A stretch of DNA of 64,000 bases. Source: Escherichia phage wV7. Position numbers and translations under genes: made by a program. Shown here piece by piece: positions 2,448 through 62,326 of this stretch (positions are counted from its first letter, which is position 1; the number at the start of each line of letters is the position of its first letter). The DNA lies in sequence record NC_019505.1. One strand, given 5' to 3'. The notes under the pieces were generated by a model. That model ran no database searches. It had not been told where the DNA came from and was given only the letters and a program-made list of their open reading frames with translations.

Positions 2448-4267
2448 TACTGGCTCATCCATTCTTTACGAAGGTCAGCATTATCTCCCATGAGCATTTC
2501 AAAAAGCTCTTTCCAGTTCTCAGGAAGTTTAACAACATCATATACTGGATTTTGAATCATCTCACGATATTCAGATTTTTCCAAAGAGCCAAGTCCCTTA
2601 ATATAACGGATGCTATGTTTAGGTAGAGCATCTTTAGCACTCTCATATTCAGCGACTGTATAAAACCATTCTTGTTTTTTACCGACCTGGGCGATGATTA
2701 CAGGAGTTTTGACAAAGCGAATTCGTCCTTGCTCAAACAATTCTGGCCAATTACTAAAAAATCCGAGCAGAGAAGGATAAATGCTTCCTAAACCATCATG
2801 GTCAGCATCGGTCATAATAGCAATATTATGATAATTCAAGTTTTCAGCTTTTTCACCAAGAACTAATCCAGTGATTGCGCAAATATCAAATAGTTCTTTG
2901 TTTTTAAGCATATCAGCATATGACATACCCCAACTATTGAGAACTTTACCACGCAATGGATAACCACCGTGAAGTTCTTTATCACGAACATCAATAAGAT
3001 ATCCGATAGCCGAATCACCCTCAGTCAAGAAAAGAGTAGTATCAGCATCTTTACCGCAAAGATTCGCTTTGATATGTTTATGAACCTTAGCTTTAGAAGC
3101 CTTTTTAGCTGCTTTAGTTTCTGCTGCTTTTTCTGCCGCTAATTTACGAGCCAAGGCAGCTTCAATAATTGGCATTAAAATTGCTTCATTGTTTAAAATA
3201 GCGCGTGAAATCTTTTTAGCATCAAGTTGAATATGACTACGAATTTCACCAAATGGAGAAGTCAAACGCTCTTTAGTTTGAGAATCAAATCGCATGTTTT
3301 TCATATCACGAACAAACATAACGATAGTCAAACATTCTTTAACACGTGCTTTAGTTACATCAATTTTGAACTTACGTTTGATTTGTGGAATAAGGTCTTC
3401 ACAAATATCATCCATAACACAGTCAATGTGATGGCCACCATTCTTAGTATGAATGTTATTGACGTACGTCAACTGACGAAAACCATCCGGTGAACGACCA
3501 ACCGCAATAGAACAATTTTCTTGTTCTTGAACGATAGCATGTTCATCATACTGTCGTGCATATTTCTTAAAATTGCCCTGAACCTTTTTACCATTAAAGG
3601 TAAATTGAATATCAGGATAAACAACAGCAAGTGTCTGGAGACGATCTAATGTAATGTCAAGATAAACTTGGGACAGCTCATTAGTTTCAAATGACATAAA
3701 ATCAGGAATGAAAGTAACACGAGTTCCTTTCCATTTTCCAGGAATATCTTCCCATGATTTATTTTCCATGCCATTTGAACAACGAACTACAATATTATTT
3801 TGACCATCACCAGTTTCACCAACAAACATCACAGAAAAAATGTTTGTCAAACTAGAACCAACACCGTTCATACCGCCAGTGACGCGTTCTTTATCATCAC
3901 CGAAGTTACCACCTGCTTTTGGAATAGTCCATGCGGCAACAGGACCAGGAATTTCTTCACCGGTAGGTGTTTTAACCATCGCTTGTGGAATACCACGACC
4001 GTTATCTTCAACTGTTACCTGATTATTTTTAATGGTAACATTAATTTTATTCGCGAATTTAAACTTAGTACGAATACCTTCATCGACTGAGTTATCGATA
4101 ATTTCATCAATAAGCTTAACAAGACCAGGTACATACTGAACACTTTCCCATTTACCAAACAGAAAGCGCTCATGCATTTCATTAGCAGAAGAGCCAATAT
4201 ACATGCCGCTACGCTTTTTGATATGTTCAATATCGCTCAGAATTTTAATTTCATTCTTAATCATCAC
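2447..4267 (-). CDS. 39: DNA topoisomerase II large (ATPase) subunit, gene 39 fused with gene 60 portion
   Basis: 606-aa ORF; GyrB-like GHKL ATPase motif DNGRGIP; single uninterrupted frame of 39+60 length. Confidence 0.9.
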   Translation of the reverse strand: MMIKNEIKILSDIEHIKKRSGMYIGSSANEMHERFLFGKWESVQYVPGLVKLIDEIIDNSVDEGIRTKFKFANKINVTIKNNQVTVEDNGRGIPQAMVKTPTGEEIPGPVAAWTIPKAGGNFGDDKERVTGGMNGVGSSLTNIFSVMFVGETGDGQNNIVVRCSNGMENKSWEDIPGKWKGTRVTFIPDFMSFETNELSQVYLDITLDRLQTLAVVYPDIQFTFNGKKVQGNFKKYARQYDEHAIVQEQENCSIAVGRSPDGFRQLTYVNNIHTKNGGHHIDCVMDDICEDLIPQIKRKFKIDVTKARVKECLTIVMFVRDMKNMRFDSQTKERLTSPFGEIRSHIQLDAKKISRAILNNEAILMPIIEAALARKLAAEKAAETKAAKKASKAKVHKHIKANLCGKDADTTLFLTEGDSAIGYLIDVRDKELHGGYPLRGKVLNSWGMSYADMLKNKELFDICAITGLVLGEKAENLNYHNIAIMTDADHDGLGSIYPSLLGFFSNWPELFEQGRIRFVKTPVIIAQVGKKQEWFYTVAEYESAKDALPKHSIRYIKGLGSLEKSEYREMIQNPVYDVVKLPENWKELFEMLMGDNADLRKEWMSQ

Positions 4268-4316
4268 TTATCCTCGTTTGGTTTCGGGAATATTATACTC
4301 CGGCAATCATAAAGCT

Positions 4317-4335
4317 AAAGGCCCGAAGGCCTTTT
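4317..4335 (-). terminator. UUCG-tetraloop hairpin between lipoprotein gene and gene 39
   Basis: AAAGGCC-UUCG-GGCCUUU on minus-strand RNA; weak U tract. Confidence 0.45.
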
Positions 4336-4603
4336 ATTTAAAACGAATAGTTGAATCCTTAAAGAACAGCCCAGAACATACTGTTCCTTCTACTTTCTGC
4401 CCAGTAGGTCCAATAGCACGAAATCCAGTATGTTGGAAATCATTTTCAGAGCAACCGAACCAGTTATATCCAGTGATTTCAATATTCGTAAAACCACTCG
4501 ATGATAAAATTTTAGTTGCATTATCAGCATCAGTACATCCTACTAAAGATACTGCTAATACTAATGCTGCAATAGAACGATTAATATATTTCATAGTTTT
4601 CAC
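4334..4603 (-). CDS. putative lipoprotein
   Basis: 89 aa; signal peptide with lipobox LVGC. Confidence 0.5.
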   Translation of the reverse strand: MKTMKYINRSIAALVLAVSLVGCTDADNATKILSSSGFTNIEITGYNWFGCSENDFQHTGFRAIGPTGQKVEGTVCSGLFFKDSTIRFK

Positions 4604-4980
4604 TTAAATTTAATGGCTTGAAGGAGACTAATAATTCTCAAACGGCTTCTTTCATCTTTAACTGTAAAAGAAAGAGGGTCGCCAGATTTCATAGTGATAG
4701 TGCATTCAAAATCAAAATCTTCAGGAACTTCTTCGAAGAAGTCAAATTCTTCATCATAAATTAGAACTTCACTCCGCAGACTGTGAAGAATTTTTCCAGC
4801 ATTTCTGCTAGTTGCTGTACTAATCATTGTAACATTATGACCTTTCATATCTTCAACGATAAATTCGCTTGTAGATATTACGGCATTAATAGAACCATTC
4901 CTATTACTAGCAGAAAGTAGATATTTCTTTTCTTCACCTTCGCGAACACGATATTTCTTACCGATTTTAAACATAATCAC
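4600..4980 (-). CDS. hypothetical protein
   Basis: 126-aa ORF; overlaps neighbours by 4 nt; start GTG or ATG 6 nt downstream. Confidence 0.45.
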   Translation of the reverse strand: MIMFKIGKKYRVREGEEKKYLLSASNRNGSINAVISTSEFIVEDMKGHNVTMISTATSRNAGKILHSLRSEVLIYDEEFDFFEEVPEDFDFECTITMKSGDPLSFTVKDERSRLRIISLLQAIKFK

Positions 4981-5153
4981 CCTTTAAGTAAATCGTAAAA
5001 ACCGCCATTCACATGCTTAGGAGCAGAAGGCCGACGAGTAGACAAACGATGACATTTAGGGCAAACATCATTTTCTCGTTCAGAAATCTTTTTAATTTTT
5101 TCATATTCATGCCCGCAATCTTCGGATTGGCATTTATAATCATACATTGGCAT
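4977..5153 (-). CDS. FmdB-family-like zinc-ribbon protein (58 aa)
   Basis: Manual call: MPMYDYKCQSEDCGHEYEKI...CPKCH; MPxYxYKC start and two CxxC pairs; coordinates approximate. Confidence 0.45.
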   Translation of the reverse strand: MPMYDYKCQSEDCGHEYEKIKKISERENDVCPKCHRLSTRRPSAPKHVNGGFYDLLKG

Positions 5154-5155
5154 AA

Positions 5156-5581
5156 TTATTCCTTAAAGTGTGCTTTCAACATCTGATACAAAGACCATGC
5201 CTGTTCATTATTTTCAATAGTAACTTTCATGACCGGGAATTCTGTGAAATCTTCTATTTGTTCTTGCTCTTTCTCTTCCTGCTCTTGCTCTTCAGCTGCC
5301 TGGTATGGATTTTCCACTTCATCAAAGAACACGGCTTCACTCGTTGAAAGCCAGATAAAATCTTCATCCAAAATATCTTTACCAGAAGATAACGCCAATT
5401 TTCCACTAGATGTCACAAGTTTAGTAGGACGACCAAGATAGTCAATATCTGTAACTCTAAAAGGTTCCATACCAAGACGTCGTGCATAAATTCCGTTTTC
5501 AGTATGGTCCTTGATAAAATCTTCTTGAGCTTGTTTATTTTTAAATTGATACCATTTATTAACTTCAAATTTAATAGCCAT
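5156..5581 (-). CDS. hypothetical acidic protein
   Basis: Track ORF 5156..5599 starts at TTG; internal ATG (M7) with AGGAA RBS chosen; acidic [12 protein letters not shown] tract. Confidence 0.5.
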
Positions 5582-11738: not shown

Positions 11739-12341
11739 TTATAGATTAAATCCTTCAAAATCAAGAGTATAGATAGTGTATGTTGAATACTTTTTATACT
11801 CATATCTATCTGCAATTCTAAATACACTTCCAGCTGGTATCATTACTTCTTGTTCATCTGAAACTAATTCCATATTACGATAACGATGGCTATCCGGAAA
11901 CTTAAAGTTTGGATTGTATTCTTTACAGCGTAGAGCTTTTATAGCATACTCCTGGAAATTGAATACCATAGGAGCTTTGAATTCAAAAATAACCTGTGTG
12001 TTATACTCTAAACCGGAAGCAAAATGTAGAGCTATATTTTTATCATATGAAGCTGATACGACTTTATCAAATGTAATAATATCAATTCCTTGATTTAACA
12101 CCTGCTTAGTCTCAGCTGGAACACCTCTCCAAAGAGGTTTATCGTTTGGAACCAAACGAGATTTGATTATTTCATTTAACCAAGTATGGTCATCTGGCTT
12201 ATTGGTAATACAATGAATTAAAAGTTCAATTTCAGATAAATTAAACCCTTCAGAAAGCAATTCTTCACGAATAGAAGCACGCACCGATGCATCCATTGAT
12301 TTTATTTTAAAATCTTTTAGTTGCATTACTGAGTATTTCAT
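11739..12341 (-). CDS. modA: ADP-ribosyltransferase ModA
   Basis: 200 aa; R-S-E class ART motifs LWRG, SAS, EQEVMIP; paralog of upstream gene. Confidence 0.8.
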   Translation of the reverse strand: MKYSVMQLKDFKIKSMDASVRASIREELLSEGFNLSEIELLIHCITNKPDDHTWLNEIIKSRLVPNDKPLWRGVPAETKQVLNQGIDIITFDKVVSASYDKNIALHFASGLEYNTQVIFEFKAPMVFNFQEYAIKALRCKEYNPNFKFPDSHRYRNMELVSDEQEVMIPAGSVFRIADRYEYKKYSTYTIYTLDFEGFNL

Positions 12342-12961
12342 TCAACTACCTCAATATCATAAACTTTAAATGTTCCAAATGAATCGTGTAATTTTTCTTT
12401 TGAAATAGAAGTTATTCTATACTTTCTAATTGGAATCATCCATTCTTGTTCATGTACAATCATCATTAAGTTATCAGTTCTTTCTGAATCTAACCCATCA
12501 GTATCTTCATACGTGTACTTAAACTCAGTATTAGGAGAAGAAAGTATAATATCGCTGATATGGTCAGAATAATTAAAAGCTTTATCAGTTTTTAAACGAA
12601 GTATTGTTTCAGTGAAATATTCAGCATAAGAAAAAGAACACGCTGTATGCAAACTAGTAGTAAATGAATCTACCCTGTTCGTTGAAAACACTTCTCCAAC
12701 TTGTAAATCTTTAATAAGTTCTTTTGTCGATTTTGATATACCACGATATAGCTGATAAGGTGATTTAGTTAAATGCTTTTTAACGATTTTATTCAACTGC
12801 CGATGAAGAGCTTCATTCTTTTTGGCTTCCATACATTGCCAAAGAACAGACTGCTCAAAGTCAGTAAATTTTTCACAGACCTTTTTATACATATCATATT
12901 GAAAATCAACGTTTTCAGCTTTTATAGATAACTGTTCAACATCTGCAGGATTAATAATCAT
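12338..12961 (-). CDS. modB: ADP-ribosyltransferase ModB
   Basis: 207 aa; LYRG, FSTN, EQEWMIP motifs; ATGA-type overlap with modA. Confidence 0.8.
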   Translation of the reverse strand: MIINPADVEQLSIKAENVDFQYDMYKKVCEKFTDFEQSVLWQCMEAKKNEALHRQLNKIVKKHLTKSPYQLYRGISKSTKELIKDLQVGEVFSTNRVDSFTTSLHTACSFSYAEYFTETILRLKTDKAFNYSDHISDIILSSPNTEFKYTYEDTDGLDSERTDNLMMIVHEQEWMIPIRKYRITSISKEKLHDSFGTFKVYDIEVVE

Positions 12962-17920: not shown

Positions 17921-17966
17921 ATTAACCTTTATTCATAAAAGCATTAAAAATTTGATCGTCAATAGA
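17918..17966. repeat. direct repeat copy 2 (~49 bp)
   Basis: ~4 mismatches to copy 1. Confidence 0.6.
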
Positions 17967-18563
17967 AACATTTACTTTAGACTGTTCTTCAAACGGTAAT
18001 TCATATCCACATATTACAATTTTGTGATCGATACCAAAATACACAGAAGCAATATGATTAATATTATTTTCAGTGAAATCTAAATCAACATCAATATCTT
18101 TTTGACTAACGCTCAAAGGATAATTAATACGAATAATTCGATTATCTTTAACAAAGATTCCACCGACATACTCTGTGTTGCGTTTAAAGTTTACACGTTT
18201 CCTAAATGAAAAATATTCAGGTTCTTTATGAGCCCGACTCATAGGACACAATGAGTAGCTAGAATAAGAGATGTCAAATCCTACACCTTCAATATGAGCC
18301 AACGTGTCATGATTAAACCAATTATAATCATATGCCAAATCCATTATATTGTAATATGTGAAAGGCACCGGATTAACATCATGTGTTGTACCTTTAAAAT
18401 CTGCCCAGGCAACGATTTCGTTATCTTTAACAATTACAAAAATTGTGCCAATAAGATATCCACGGTTATTTTCATCAGGCGTTATATTATAACATTGCGC
18501 ATCAGGAAATTTACCGTATTTAAACGGTGGATTTTTGTGCATATAATAAATCATATTATTCAC
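17922..18563 (-). CDS. hypothetical protein (61.x cluster)
   Basis: 213 aa; C-terminus SIDDQIFNAFMNKG. Confidence 0.5.
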   Translation of the reverse strand: MNNMIYYMHKNPPFKYGKFPDAQCYNITPDENNRGYLIGTIFVIVKDNEIVAWADFKGTTHDVNPVPFTYYNIMDLAYDYNWFNHDTLAHIEGVGFDISYSSYSLCPMSRAHKEPEYFSFRKRVNFKRNTEYVGGIFVKDNRIIRINYPLSVSQKDIDVDLDFTENNINHIASVYFGIDHKIVICGYELPFEEQSKVNVSIDDQIFNAFMNKG

Positions 18564-57691: not shown

Positions 57692-57873
57692 AAGGAATTT
57701 ATATAATCAATGAGTTCTTGTTCTTTATTATCGAATTCTTTAGAAAGTTCTTCGTATTCGTCAGTATTAAAAGGACCGCATTCATTACAAACTTTTTCCA
57801 ATTCACTATTTTTATCCATAACTTCGTGGATAAGAGAAAAGAGTTTGTCTTTTTGTTCTTTGCTTAGGCTCAT
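57688..57873 (-). CDS. small helical protein (family member)
   Basis: 61 aa MSLSKEQKDKLFSLIHEV... Confidence 0.45.
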   Translation of the reverse strand: MSLSKEQKDKLFSLIHEVMDKNSELEKVCNECGPFNTDEYEELSKEFDNKEQELIDYINSL

Positions 57874-58039
57874 ATATTAATTTCCAGAAGTTTTAAAATA
57901 ATTCGCTTTTGCTTAAATATTTCCATAGTTAAATGATCAGTATCTTTTTGACCAATTCCAATGGCAAAACCTTTATTAGCAGCGAGTTCAATTAAATTAT
58001 CAAGTTCACGTGACACTTCATATTGTAACTCAGAACTAT

Positions 58040-58252
58040 TCATTTCGGTTTACCTTCTTTAACGAAATCTGGATAAGGATAAAATCCCGAATAAAATCCT
58101 TCACCTTTATGATTGATGCATCCTTTATTAGAACAATAGCACCAATAATCGAAATCACAAGCCATTTCATCGTTGCATAAAGCAAAAACAACTGGCCATT
58201 TACACTTTTCACAATGGGCATTTTTAAGAATACTAGTTTGGCTCATAACCAT
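58040..58252 (-). CDS. small cysteine-rich protein
   Basis: 70 aa with 9 Cys (CEKC, CNDEMAC, CYC, GC). Confidence 0.45.
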   Translation of the reverse strand: MVMSQTSILKNAHCEKCKWPVVFALCNDEMACDFDYWCYCSNKGCINHKGEGFYSGFYPYPDFVKEGKPK

Positions 58253-58470
58253 GTAACCTTTAAGCAGTATTCTTCTACATGCTGTTTACGACCTTTCTTA
58301 TCAATAAAGGTATATTCAACGAATGTTCCAATGTAGTCTTTATCTACATCATGTGGACTATTAATTGGACATTTAGTACGGCAAATGCGTTCCCATTGAC
58401 GAATAATTACTGCCTTATTCTTTTGGTCATATGGATGTGGATAATGTATATTCATAATAATGGTTCCCAA
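58243..58470 (-). CDS. small hypothetical protein
   Basis: 75-aa ORF. Confidence 0.45.
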   Translation of the reverse strand: MGTIIMNIHYPHPYDQKNKAVIIRQWERICRTKCPINSPHDVDKDYIGTFVEYTFIDKKGRKQHVEEYCLKVTWL

Positions 58471-58919
58471 TCAACAATCACAATTTCTAATTTAGAGGAA
58501 TATGTATCTAAAATCCCCTCAATAATATCCCAGTTCCTTTTACCTATGCCTGCACCAATCCTAGGCATATAGATTGTAGGTTTAGTCAGTTTATTTTCAC
58601 CAAACTCATTTAATTCTAACATACAATTCATTAAAGCGGAATACTCAAAATTTGGCCCTGGTTGAAATTGAGTATAAAGATTAAAGCAGTAAGCTTTATG
58701 AGTCCTAAAGTATTTTTCATAGACTGAGTAAGAACCAAGTTTAGTTACATCACCCCATTCAGTCTGTAGTTTATCAGCTTCCAGAATTTTAGGGAAAGCT
58801 TTGGTTAATTGACCTGCGACTCCAGCTTTCATCGTATGAAAACAATTACATCCATGCGCAATATTTTTACCTTCAGTGAAAAGGGCGACAATATCGCCCT
58901 TGATATATTTTACAATCAT
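58452..58919 (-). CDS. macro-domain protein, TARG1/OARD1-like (putative ADP-ribose hydrolase)
   Basis: 155 aa; KGDIVALFTEGKNIAHGCNCFHTMKAGVAGQL and YMPRIGAGIGKRNWDIIEGIL resemble recalled TARG1 motifs. Confidence 0.6.
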   Translation of the reverse strand: MIVKYIKGDIVALFTEGKNIAHGCNCFHTMKAGVAGQLTKAFPKILEADKLQTEWGDVTKLGSYSVYEKYFRTHKAYCFNLYTQFQPGPNFEYSALMNCMLELNEFGENKLTKPTIYMPRIGAGIGKRNWDIIEGILDTYSSKLEIVIVDWEPLL

Positions 58920-59263
58920 CTAGTACTCAATCCTCGATTATAAGAATCTACCAAACGGTCAACCATTGAATGACAAGCGGCTTTATCTTTTTCCTCCGCA
59001 ACTGAACATTCTAAGGTATTCCACTTTTTAGCATATCGTTTTAACAATGTATCATTTTTGTATCTGCTTGATTTATCTCTTTCTCCGTCTTTATATGCAT
59101 ATATTAATTTCTGCGCAAATTCAGCTTGACATGCTTTATTTTTCCCACAATAATCCGCGGCAGTACGGTTTACATACTCTCTAATTTCAGTATATGATGT
59201 ATCTGCTAACGCAGAAGCAGAAAATGAAATTAATCCTATACATAAAACCAAAATTTTAGTCAT
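58916..59263 (-). CDS. secreted/periplasmic hypothetical protein
   Basis: 115 aa; signal peptide; 4 Cys. Confidence 0.45.
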   Translation of the reverse strand: MTKILVLCIGLISFSASALADTSYTEIREYVNRTAADYCGKNKACQAEFAQKLIYAYKDGERDKSSRYKNDTLLKRYAKKWNTLECSVAEEKDKAACHSMVDRLVDSYNRGLSTR

Positions 59264-59801
59264 TTACTATTTCCAAAAGTTTATTATTTTTAAGGTAATT
59301 AGCCTTTTCTAGGACTTCAGAAGCATATTTAGAACCTGCTTTAACATTCCATCCCGAATTATAAGAGGATATCGCCTTTCTTATATCGCCCTTATGTATA
59401 TTTAACCAATAAGAAAGTTCAATGTACGCCCAGGAAGCTGAATTGGACCGTTTATTCAACATTCTTTTTATTTCAGCATCGGTCATATTATAACCAAGTT
59501 CCTTAACTCTTGCTCGCATAGTAGGCAAATAATTTTGGAACATTCCGTAGGCGTGATGCTTTGGTTTAGATTTTAAATTAACTCCGCCAGAGCTTTCTTG
59601 CCATAAAATAGCAGCCATTATATGACCTAATCCACTCTTGTGGATGTTTTTGTGTGTTTTATATTTTCCATCCTTAGAAAATTGTTCCCCGAATTGATAC
59701 GCGTAACGCATGTTATCGAGTTGGACATTACTGAAAGTATGCTCGGAGCTATGTGCCATCATTGAAATGGCCAATAGACCAGCGAGTAGTGCTTTTCTCA
59801 T
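59256..59801 (-). CDS. lytic transglycosylase (SLT domain), secreted
   Basis: 181 aa; signal peptide; SLT motifs ILWQESSGG...AYGMFQ and SSYNSGWN. Confidence 0.65.
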   Translation of the reverse strand: MRKALLAGLLAISMMAHSSEHTFSNVQLDNMRYAYQFGEQFSKDGKYKTHKNIHKSGLGHIMAAILWQESSGGVNLKSKPKHHAYGMFQNYLPTMRARVKELGYNMTDAEIKRMLNKRSNSASWAYIELSYWLNIHKGDIRKAISSYNSGWNVKAGSKYASEVLEKANYLKNNKLLEIVND

Positions 59802-59808
59802 GCTTACC

Positions 59809-60270
59809 TCATTGAGTTTTAATTACTGCTTTAGAAGCCTTTCCTGGTAAACGACGACTGTTGATAATTGCCATTCTACATTGAAGTGACGGGTCTTTGA
59901 ACTTCGCATTAGGTTTACAAACCGTAAATCCAAGCCAAAGATTTCCATCTGTAATTTCCAAACGCCCAGGACGATATTCAACCCCATCAATAAAATCCTC
60001 GTCAATGTCAGGACGCGGAGGCATACTCAGGAATTCATTAACTTCTAAAACATGGTCTTTTATTTTGTGGAATAATTCAAAAACATATGTCTCATCAATC
60101 TCCCGTTGAATTGCACGATCAAGAAGATGTTGAGAATATTTTAGATGAAACGATGAGACTCCTGCTGCTTTTGATGCCTCACGAATCTCATTGTTAATTT
60201 GACGAAACTCCGACTCAAAATGACGACGAAGCTTATTTCGACGGATAAAAACTTCTGTATTGATAGTCAT
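59809..60270 (-). CDS. regB: RegB site-specific endoribonuclease
   Basis: 153 aa; matches T4 RegB as recalled; early promoter upstream. Confidence 0.8.
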   Translation of the reverse strand: MTINTEVFIRRNKLRRHFESEFRQINNEIREASKAAGVSSFHLKYSQHLLDRAIQREIDETYVFELFHKIKDHVLEVNEFLSMPPRPDIDEDFIDGVEYRPGRLEITDGNLWLGFTVCKPNAKFKDPSLQCRMAIINSRRLPGKASKAVIKTQ

Positions 60271-60297
60271 GTTGTTCTCCTCTTAACTGATAGAAAA

Positions 60298-60327
60298 ATT
60301 ATACCACAGTCAAGAGGAAAAGTAAAC
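60298..60327 (-). promoter_or_regulatory. T4-type early promoter
   Basis: GTTTAC ... TGGTATAAT upstream of regB. Confidence 0.6.
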
Positions 60328-60329
60328 AG

Positions 60330-60650
60330 TTATTCTTTAAATCTAATCAATTTATTCATAGACTTTGAAACTTCTGCACGAACCTCGTGTAGATTTTTAA
60401 GCTGTTCAAGACGTTGCTCATAGTAAGCAATTTCATCTTCTTCGAGGCAGTCCTGTGAATCTTCTTTAAGATAACGTGCATAGTCCTGGAAAGCTTTACG
60501 GACTACTTCCTGGAAATCATCAAGACTTTGAATTTTCTTAGGAGCAACAGATACACGACGAGGGGCAGTATAATACTCATAACCAAACCCTGCGCTTAAT
60601 TGAGCCATTAGTATTTTTCCTCTGGTTGGAACACTGCGCGACAAGCCCAC
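60330..60650 (-). CDS. hypothetical protein
   Basis: 106-aa track ORF; likelier start at internal M15. Confidence 0.4.
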
Positions 60651-60910
60651 ATACTAGCTTCTTTGAGTTTCGTTTTAGCAATAGTTAACTGATCGAGGCT
60701 TTCAGCATAATTCTTCGCGAGTTCATCATCTTCACAGCTATCGAATGCTTCCCAGAATTCATCGTATAAAGCATCAAAGATAAGTCCTAAACGAACTTCA
60801 GCGTCTTTGATAGCATTCACTTTACCGATTTTCTCTTCAGTATGCGGCTTATAACCTTTAATGTCTTCAATCATATTTGACTTCCTCACCAGTACATAAA
60901 TCATATTCAA
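60608..60910 (-). CDS. hypothetical protein
   Basis: 100-aa ORF; acidic. Confidence 0.4.
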
Positions 60911-61088
60911 CTAAACGAATAGGTTCATGAATGCCATATCCTTGAACAGAAATTTCTGTCGTAGGATAAATTCCATCAATATCACCCATATTCCAGGCTT
61001 CATTAAATTGCTGTTCGCCTGAATTACTAAACCACTCGGCGAAAGCATTTAGCACATCTTTAGAACCTTCAATAATTATCTTTGCCAT
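60867..61088 (-). CDS. small hypothetical protein
   Basis: 73-aa ORF. Confidence 0.45.
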   Translation of the reverse strand: MAKIIIEGSKDVLNAFAEWFSNSGEQQFNEAWNMGDIDGIYPTTEISVQGYGIHEPIRLVEYDLCTGEEVKYD

Positions 61089-61450
61089 TACAAACTCTCA
61101 GTAAAGGTACGAGCGATAACGTCGCGCTGCTGTTCCGGAGTCAGAGAGTTAAAGCGAACTGCATAACCGGATACACGGATGGTCAGCTGCGGATATTTTT
61201 CCGGATGCTTAACTGCATCTTCCAGAGTTTCACGACGCAGAACGTTAACGTTCAGGTGTTGACCACCTTCAATTTTAACTGTAGGTTGTGTTTCAATTTC
61301 AATTTCACGGGCATGCAAACCGTAGAAAATTTCTGGGTCTACAAAAGAGTCCTCTTTAAAGGTTTTAGAGACAATAATTCGTGCTTGAATACCATCTTCA
61401 AAATAAATAGTACCTTTATGTGTGCCTTCAAGAATTTGATATGCTTTCAT
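61088..61450 (-). CDS. autonomous glycyl radical cofactor-like protein (GrcA/YfiD-like)
   Basis: 120 aa; C-terminal RVSGYAVRF glycyl radical signature. Confidence 0.7.
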
Positions 61451-61457
61451 ATAAACC

Positions 61458-61787
61458 TCAATTAGAAAATAAATTTATCCAAGATTGTTCTTTAATTAAA
61501 AATGGCTCAGAATCATATGCCATTAAACTTTGGGTGATTAGTCCTTTAAAAGGTCCATCAATAAATTCCATGGTAAAATATGGAATTTTATTCATTAACT
61601 GCGCGTTAGGAGCAGTGCACAAAACTCTGCATCCTTTGAATACGCCTTTTTGTAATTTGTATTGCTTGGGATAAAATTCGCTCAAAATGTTATTATTTGC
61701 CAAAATTTCAAAATGATTCACCAATTTATTTTTAATAGTTTTTGGCGAAAAATAAAGATATTCGAAAAGCTGTGTGTCTGTCATCAT
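61458..61787 (-). CDS. hypothetical protein
   Basis: 109-aa ORF. Confidence 0.45.
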
Positions 61788-62326
61788 TGCATTCCAATCA
61801 CAAAAAATTGAGGACGAACTGTTTCACCTGTTTCAGCATTATAGCTTCGACAACAGTGTTGTACCGTTTTAATATGGATATTGTAAATCTTATCCATATC
61901 AGGAGCTTTAATAGGTTCGTCAATTATGTACAAGATACGAGAAAGCGATAACCCACGGAATTTATGACCTTCATTACCGATAAAACTACGGACAGAATCA
62001 GTAAATAAACGGAATCGAATATCATCATTAGAATAACGCGAAAATTCCTTTTTAATGTTATTTGCAGAAATTTTAGCGTAAGCTGAAGTATTAGAAAGAA
62101 CAATAACTGTTCCGCCATCATACAGCCAATTAGCAGCAAAGTTAGTCACAGCAATTGATTTACCGGATTGACGTCCACCATCTATACGAAGTGTGCAGTA
62201 CTGTTTGAGCACATCTTCCATTGGTGGAAGATAATCATTCTTACAAATTTCTTCTACTCTAGCATCAGAATGGTGTGTAAAAGCATTCATCAGGGATAGA
62301 TAAGGACCAGTTAAAAATGTTCTCAT
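61784..62326 (-). CDS. small P-loop NTPase-like protein
   Basis: Start at M17 with GAGAGAATAAA RBS; Walker A-like DGGRQSGKS and Walker B-like ILYIIDEP. Confidence 0.45.
   Translation of the reverse strand: MRTFLTGPYLSLMNAFTHHSDARVEEICKNDYLPPMEDVLKQYCTLRIDGGRQSGKSIAVTNFAANWLYDGGTVIVLSNTSAYAKISANNIKKEFSRYSNDDIRFRLFTDSVRSFIGNEGHKFRGLSLSRILYIIDEPIKAPDMDKIYNIHIKTVQHCCRSYNAETGETVRPQFFVIGMQ

Follow-up and report, generated by a model that had tools for sequence, protein, structure and literature searches.

The tk.4 gene and its surroundings

An ORF of 155 codons with an ATG start is present on the minus strand of the analysed stretch of Escherichia phage wV7 DNA (NC_019505.1; 64,000 nucleotides, hereafter the window; coordinates in Table 1). 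Comparison of its product with the T4 orthologue Tk.4 (NP_049723.1) showed 150 of the 155 residues to be identical (97%). The five differences, from wV7 to T4, are T15A, K31G, A32S, T112I and R128G; the location between vs and tk.3, the start and stop codon overlaps and all conserved motifs are shared by the two phages. Over the 4 kb surrounding tk.4, identity is 100% with Escherichia coli O157 typing phage 7 (KP869105.1, a Tequatrovirus) and approximately 98% with T6 and a large number of further T-even phages. The same Tk.4 protein sequence has been deposited for typing phage 7 and for wV7. In KP869105.1 the ORF is annotated as 'macro domain protein' (AKE46129.1), and in other phage records the labels 'phosphatase', 'macro domain-containing protein' and 'high-affinity ADP-ribose binding module protein' are found.

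Table 1. Coordinates of tk.4, its sequence features and other genes discussed in the text (positions in the window).
Feature	Position	Strand	Basis
tk.4 / adfM CDS, 155 aa, standalone macro domain	58452..58919	-	ATG-initiated ORF; T4 orthology; annotation; Pfam Macro; AF2 model
ADP-ribose-binding loop 1, residues 22-35, HGCNCFHTMKAGVA; H22, N25, G-x-G (here K31-A32-G33)	58815..58856	-	conservation and hhalign
K31 codon	58827..58829	-	
Catalytic-position motif N-L-Y-T-Q, residues 80-84	58668..58682	-	agreeing alignments to TARG1, TaqDarG, PhiKZ AdfM, SCO6735 and BT1257
Phosphate-binding loop 2, residues 119-130, PRIGAGIGKRNW; G124 (SCO6735 G128), G126 (TARG1 D125 position)	58530..58565	-	alignments
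R128 codon (AGG)	58536..58538	-	
ATGA overlap, vs stop codon / tk.4 start codon	58916..58919	-	ORF coordinates; same arrangement in T4
ATGA overlap, tk.4 stop codon / tk.3 start codon	58452..58455	-	KP869105.1 CDS coordinates mapped onto the window
tk.3	58246..58455	-	tblastn match
ORF of 57 aa between tk.2 and tk.3	57870..58043	-	
ORF of 68 aa between tk.2 and tk.3	58040..58246	-	
regB	59809..60270	-	
Candidate sigma-70-like promoter just upstream of regB	60298..60326	-	TTTACT-17-TATAAT, extended TG, 10/12 matches
CDS at the vs.4 position, 267 nt	~60608..60874	-	synteny with PP01
modA	11742..12341		
modB	12341..12961		
T4 gp61.2 (adfA) orthologue	17925..18554	-	

On one side tk.4 is flanked by vs, vs.1 and regB and on the other by tk.3, tk.2, tk.1 and tk, each 93-100% identical to its T4 counterpart (98.6-100% for vs, vs.1, regB, tk.3 and tk). 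tk.4 and its neighbours are all encoded on the minus strand, and the order of transcription is regB, vs.1, vs, tk.4, tk.3 and, at the far end, tk. The original prediction had placed the gene downstream of tk, which is the case in plus-strand coordinates only; with respect to transcription, tk.4 is upstream of tk. The ATGA overlap of vs and tk.4 suggests translational coupling of the two genes. A consensus scan of the coding strand gave a single good sigma-70-like candidate, the best one on that strand, just upstream of regB. This site could possibly be the start of a regB-to-tk transcription unit, and a lone good candidate at this place fits co-transcription of the whole block. Promoter-like sites in the tk.4 region were not enriched over shuffled sequences (17 found, 16.6 expected) and the promoter and terminator scan gave nothing beyond shuffle level, so no dedicated tk.4 promoter is claimed.

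The ORF is a real gene and not a chance ORF, since tblastn found relatives of Tk.4 in 2765 phage records and the T2 orthologue has been seen by proteomics (bioRxiv 10.64898/2026.06.19.733364). In that study, which labels T2 tk.4 'putative thymidine kinase', the host sRNA ArcZ and other sRNAs were found by RIL-seq to be paired with tk.4 mRNA in T2-infected E. coli, and the level of Tk.4 protein during T2 infection was the same after deletion of arcZ (bioRxiv 10.64898/2026.06.19.733364).

In KP869105.1 the label 'Endoribonuclease RegB' has been wrongly spread over the CDSs neighbouring regB (vs.1, vs.3 and others; approximately 59256-61800 in the window); the true regB of wV7 is only the CDS listed in Table 1. 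The two small ORFs between tk.2 and tk.3 have no T4 equivalent, and their counterparts in PP01 are 91% (57 aa) and 96% (68 aa) identical. The cysteine-rich 68-aa product (CEKC ... C ... C ... CYC ... C) is possibly a zinc-binding protein. A further CDS lies at the position of vs.4. T4 Vs.4 is presumably the anti-CBASS sponge Acb2; in that case, several counter-defence genes (vs.4 and tk.4) would be clustered in this early region.

Macro-domain fold and active-site residues

Tk.4 matched the Pfam Macro profile (PF01661) over profile positions 2-113 of 118 with 24.4 bits (gathering cut-off 22; E 2.9e-5). AlphaFold prediction from the sequence by itself had too low a confidence to be used (pLDDT 38.8); it was replaced by an AF2 model based on an alignment of 118 sequences (pLDDT 93.2), in which the predicted fold is the alpha/beta/alpha macro fold. 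The best Foldseek match of this model was human TARG1 / OARD1 (PDB 4J5R; E 3e-10, TM 0.72-0.79). With hhalign, the Tk.4 family aligned to SCO6735 of Streptomyces coelicolor (PDB 5E3B) with a probability of 98.4% (E 8e-15) and to Bt_1257 (PDB 2FG1/2AFC) with 98.8% (E 5e-17), the latter being the top score of all. The closest structural and profile neighbours are thus members of the ALC1-like / TARG1-like class. The macro domain that had been proposed from the sequence is borne out by the gathering score and the fold, and the proposed TARG1/DarG-type assignment stands at the level of the class. The motifs on which it had been based (KGDIVALF, NIAHGCNC, KAGVAGQL and YMPRIGAGIGKRNWDIIEGIL) are all present in the product; they had been called diagnostic of TARG1, but are really the loops with which macro domains in general bind ADP-ribose.

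Conservation was counted in 118 homologues. In loop 1, conservation is 95% or higher for H22, G23, C24, N25, C26 and M30 and complete for G33 and A35; according to hhalign, H22 corresponds to H24 of SCO6735, and N25 to N27 of SCO6735, N22 of TaqDarG and N23 of the PhiKZ protein. In the motif N-L-Y-T-Q, Y82 and Q84 are found in all 118 sequences, N80 in 117, and T83 is invariant or nearly so. P119, I121 and G124 of loop 2 are invariant, and position 126 is Ala in 89 homologues and Gly in 29, wV7 among the latter. The three residues equivalent to those of SCO6735, N25, H22 and G124, are conserved in 117, 113 and 118 of the 118, respectively. As the invariant residues are those of the active site and the ligand-binding loops, they point to selection on catalysis. 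The Y-T-Q motif was also found in 77 of 80 bacterial homologues, which had been collected with search patterns that left this motif out; two more have S-Q, so that 79 of the 80 match [YI][TS]Q.

Both HMMER and hhalign place Q84 at the site of K84 in TARG1, and both TARG1 alignments put G126 on D125; with hhalign, Q84 also falls on K80 of DarG and Q85 of SCO6735. In the hhalign alignment to TaqDarG, N-L-Y-T-Q lies over N-F-P-T-K80, and in that to PhiKZ gp104, T83-Q84 lies over T77-K78. The TARG1 lysine and aspartate, which the original prediction had proposed to look for, thus have an invariant Gln and a Gly or Ala in their place, and because both equivalents are missing, the Lys-Schiff-base mechanism of TARG1 cannot apply to Tk.4. 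TARG1 resembles Tk.4 in size and loop architecture, but differs in these two residues (D125 being Gly in wV7 and Ala in most homologues) and in a serine that is replaced by N25. This serine is presumably Ser35 in the numbering of the 152-residue protein. In the paper on SCO6735 the same residue is called Ser26 (PMC9411070). TARG1, too, removes dT-ADPr (PMC8501950).

Similar differences were found with the DarG macrodomain (TaqDarG, PDB 5M31/5M3E; MtbDarG, PDB 5M3I), whose conserved active-site Asn (N22 in TaqDarG) is matched by N25, whereas its catalytic Lys is Gln in Tk.4. The C-terminal DarT-binding domain of DarG is absent from Tk.4, which consists of a macro domain only and is encoded between vs and tk.3 with no darT beside it. 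Against the NCBIfam DarG equivalog model NF048014, Tk.4 scored 23.6 bits (cut-off 250) over model positions 2-146 of 338. On the catalytic residues and this cut-off, TARG1 and DarG were both rejected as labels for Tk.4.

SCO6735 and Bt_1257 are ALC1-like macrodomains of the Gln type. SCO6735 is a standalone protein that strips off the thymidine-ADP-ribose made by DarT and rescues cells from DarT; its activity was abolished in the Q85A and Q85E mutants and nearly so in N27S, and its mechanism is based on mutagenesis and molecular-dynamics simulation (PMC9411070). Gln85, which is also the Gln of Bt_1257, corresponds to Q84, and Asn27, His24 and Gly128 have equivalents in Tk.4 as well. However, the mobile loop of SCO6735 and Bt_1257 contains Lys89 and exceeds that of DarG and TARG1 by five residues, and in SCO6735 this loop and K89 matter for activity on DNA (PMC9411070). 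The hhalign alignments of Tk.4 to both proteins show a gap of 5-6 residues after Q84-F-Q-P and no equivalent of K89. As this long loop defines the subclass, full membership is not claimed, and Tk.4 is described as SCO6735-like in its predicted action only.

The anti-DarTG2 record and the origin of the T4-type family

The tk.4/adfM gene is already CHARACTERISED and on record, together with its domain and its role against DarTG2. The A1pp/macro match of tk.4 orthologues has been known since at least 2006 (PMC1524935) and is also given in the T4 RefSeq note. LeRoux and colleagues found that T4 keeps its resistance to DarTG2 when adfA and adfN are both absent, and inferred a third factor (PMC11257639). 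When a T4 transposon library was screened on a DarTG2 host by HIDEN-SEQ, tk.4 was the sole significant hit, and a clean deletion of tk.4 made T4 sensitive to DarTG2; the authors renamed the gene adfM (anti-DarT factor, macrodomain), proposed that it removes ADP-ribose from DNA and regarded AdfM as homologous to the DarG macrodomain of M. tuberculosis, with the catalytic residues left undiscussed (bioRxiv 10.1101/2025.11.20.689424). The conditional essentiality on DarTG2 hosts is known for T4 only and comes from this preprint. The original prediction knew of no characterised macro-domain gene at this locus in T4, but T4 tk.4 had been both annotated and characterised genetically. An enzymatic assay of T4 Tk.4/AdfM was not found in the searchable literature.

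As a discovery the present analysis therefore adds little. What appears to be new is an active site of the Gln type, like that of SCO6735 rather than of TARG1 or DarG, and an apparent recruitment separate from that of PhiKZ AdfM. The record would be refined in that, where DarG has its catalytic lysine, T4-type AdfM resembles SCO6735 in having a Gln, and this Gln is invariant. This calls for caution in passing labels such as 'DarG-like' or 'phosphatase' on to the Tk.4 family, which is very common in phages (relatives in over 2700 records).

PhiKZ gp104 was independently named 'AdfM' in 2026 in Cell Reports; it removes DarT2 marks in vitro and its active-site residues are N23 and K78 (PMC13309987). 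It is a true DarG-like enzyme of the Lys type, matching MtbDarG with an E value of 9e-25 and keeping the lysine. With the PADLOC DarG model, Tk.4 reached 26.6 bits and PhiKZ gp104 132.9, and these low and high scores on DarG models place the two AdfMs in different subfamilies. Judged from their alignments, the T4 and PhiKZ proteins belong to different subclasses with different catalytic residues and look like separate recruitments; Q84 implies that the two proteins named AdfM would differ in chemistry and would have arisen separately.

The nearest 'bacterial' homologues of Tk.4 proved to come from contigs of T4-like phages that had been assigned to MAGs. Two of these, in a Bacilli MAG (JBOFGC010000414.1) and a Culicoidibacterales MAG (JBOFQK010000158.1), carry genes for T4 Rnl1, PNKP, dCMP deaminase, a Dda-like helicase and the T4 spanin around the macro gene. 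True bacterial homologues are 34-42% identical and were found at 454 loci or more, as standalone genes of approximately 150 aa in unrelated contexts. Using a single DarT2 sequence as query (phmmer, E <= 1), no DarT2 homologue was found within 4 kb at any of 80 bacterial loci, and an origin of the Tk.4 family from an orphan DarG or a DarTG operon was rejected on this one-sequence search. This contrasts with AdfN, for which an orphaned-antitoxin origin has been proposed. Apparently conserved neighbour clusters at the bacterial loci were antisense or shadow ORFs and were rejected. Ten real flanking genes had unrelated housekeeping or mobile-element functions, and one more encoded a microbial PARG. 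The latter was found in Pleionea sp. CnH1-48, where a Tk.4-type gene (4001-4456) and a microbial-type PARG gene (4486-5355; PF10021, E 2e-49) share the same strand, with the PARG gene 30 bp downstream. Such a pair was present in one of the ten loci inspected and may be a two-enzyme module for removal of ADP-ribose.

Within the phages, tk.4 varies differently from its surroundings. PP01 is a phage of the same genus, and its regB, vs.1, vs and tk share 98-99.5% identity with those of wV7, whereas tk.4 (compared at 2501-2980 of the PP01 locus) is 54.7% and tk.2 54.1% identical. The reverse was seen in the Mosigvirus WFbE185, where the flanks are 67-82% identical to wV7 and tk.4 (at 2501-2968) 83.9%. 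Among the 2765 records with a tblastn match, identity was at least 95% in 214, 80-90% in 159 and below 60% in 2381, with 11 records between these bands. Such cassette-like exchange of tk.4, which is evident from these identities, is what one would expect of a counter-defence locus.

A wider scenario, to which we give roughly even odds, is that T4-type AdfM was recruited independently from a widespread family of standalone bacterial macrodomains (HGCNC ... YTQ ... IGAGIAGGDW) and is not a captured DarG. It would remove dT-ADPr in a Gln-dependent and Lys-independent way, as SCO6735 does; AdfM would then have evolved at least twice (T4-type with Gln, PhiKZ-type with Lys), and the allele swaps would reflect adaptation to DarT2 variants, possibly through toxin contact as well as catalysis.

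Proposed function and alternatives

The explanation that we favour, with a probability of about 0.8, is that Tk.4 is a small standalone macro domain from the regB-to-tk block that would protect replicating phage DNA from host DarTG2 by hydrolysing thymidine-ADP-ribose with Gln chemistry of the SCO6735 type. It builds on the orthology and fold described above and on the knockout phenotype demonstrated by others in T4; the hydrolase activity and its chemistry are what we infer. DarT2 of DarTG2 puts ADP-ribose on thymidines of single-stranded DNA, by which replication is blocked. Tk.4 would bind the thymidine adduct and hydrolyse the bond between ribose and thymine, with the invariant Q84, held by N25, orienting the distal ribose so that water can cleave the bond; in TARG1 and DarG a lysine is used at this position instead. 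By analogy, the chemistry is predicted to be that of SCO6735. An anti-DarT eraser had been one of the functions suggested in the original prediction, and at the level of a counter-defence role this matches the genetics of the 97% identical gene of T4 (bioRxiv 10.1101/2025.11.20.689424). Counted against our explanation are the lack of the five-residue mobile-loop extension and K89 of SCO6735 and, in the wV7 allele, the G31K and G128R substitutions at conserved loop glycines.

Neutralisation of DarT2 by Tk.4 could also be mainly non-catalytic, through direct binding to the toxin or shielding of ADP-ribosylated DNA, similar to the inhibition by interaction known from DarG, and the catalytically dead Q85A mutant of SCO6735 did indeed still inhibit DarT in vitro, more than DarG K80A or TARG1 K84A (PMC9411070). 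The swapping of tk.4 alleles independently of their flanks, as in PP01, is moreover a pattern often seen in proteins in contact with a variable host partner. We nevertheless consider this unlikely: the residues that are invariant in the family (G33, A35, Y82, Q84, P119, I121 and G124) are those of the active site and ligand binding, Tk.4 does not have the domain with which DarG binds DarT, and its bacterial homologues are not located beside any DarT within 4 kb at the 80 loci.

The allele shared by typing phage 7 and wV7, which has G31K and G128R at conserved glycines, one in each ADP-ribose-binding loop, could be functionally impaired because of G128R in the phosphate-binding loop. K31, replacing the first Gly of G-x-G, is probably tolerated, because it recurs in 5 of the 118 sequences, distant lineages included (Gly in 102), and it was set aside as a defect. 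R128 is unique to wV7 among the 118 (Gly in 110, Leu in 7) and results from one base substitution (AGG, against the GGN codon expected from Gly in T4); all motifs retrieved from the 80 bacterial homologues have Gly at this position. In SCO6735, another glycine of the same loop is sensitive to substitution (G128E; PMC9411070), and loop 2 is the part of the model with the lowest confidence (mean pLDDT 71). On the other hand, the ORF is intact and every invariant residue is otherwise kept, TARG1 and DarG have Leu at position 128, so that a side chain is tolerated there, the same sequence was recorded for both phages, and the added positive charge could favour DNA binding. A functional impairment thus has only a small chance of being correct. 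The G128R loop variant and the strong allele mosaicism could be used for studying specificity towards DarT2 variants.

Action of Tk.4 on small ADP-ribose derivatives, as a 'phosphatase' or O-acetyl-ADP-ribose deacetylase like Poa1p or on ADP-ribose-based immune signals, with the DarTG2 phenotype being indirect, is very improbable. The 'phosphatase' labels were inherited from domain names, the sole reported phenotype is specific for DarTG2 (bioRxiv 10.1101/2025.11.20.689424), and SCO6735, the closest characterised relative by profile, is a hydrolase of dT-ADPr on DNA. Yeast Poa1p (PDB 6LFQ), an ADP-ribose-1''-phosphate phosphatase acting on a small molecule from tRNA splicing, is approximately 25 residues longer than Tk.4 and in a pairwise alignment has Ser, not Gln, at or near the catalytic position.

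The original prediction had also suggested that the protein regulates the ADP-ribosylation carried out by the phage itself, and ModA and ModB are, as it said, encoded in the window. Arginine-specific macrodomains do exist, MavL being one (PMC10951314); yet erasing or tuning of the modifications that Alt, ModA and ModB make (protein ADP-ribosylation or RNAylation) found no support and can hardly be the function of Tk.4, as these enzymes modify arginine (PMC8120803), cleavage of Arg-ADPr is unreported for any macrodomain of the ALC1-like class found here, tk.4 insertions in HIDEN-SEQ were depleted specifically on the DarTG2 host (bioRxiv 10.1101/2025.11.20.689424), and tk.4 is unlinked to modA and modB, at a distance of approximately 46 kb.

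The orthologue of T4 gp61.2 (AdfA, the anti-DarTG1 factor) is only 74% identical to that of T4, and dmd, srd, dda and modA near it are 97-99% identical to their T4 counterparts. A second anti-DarT gene in the window is thus also unusually divergent.
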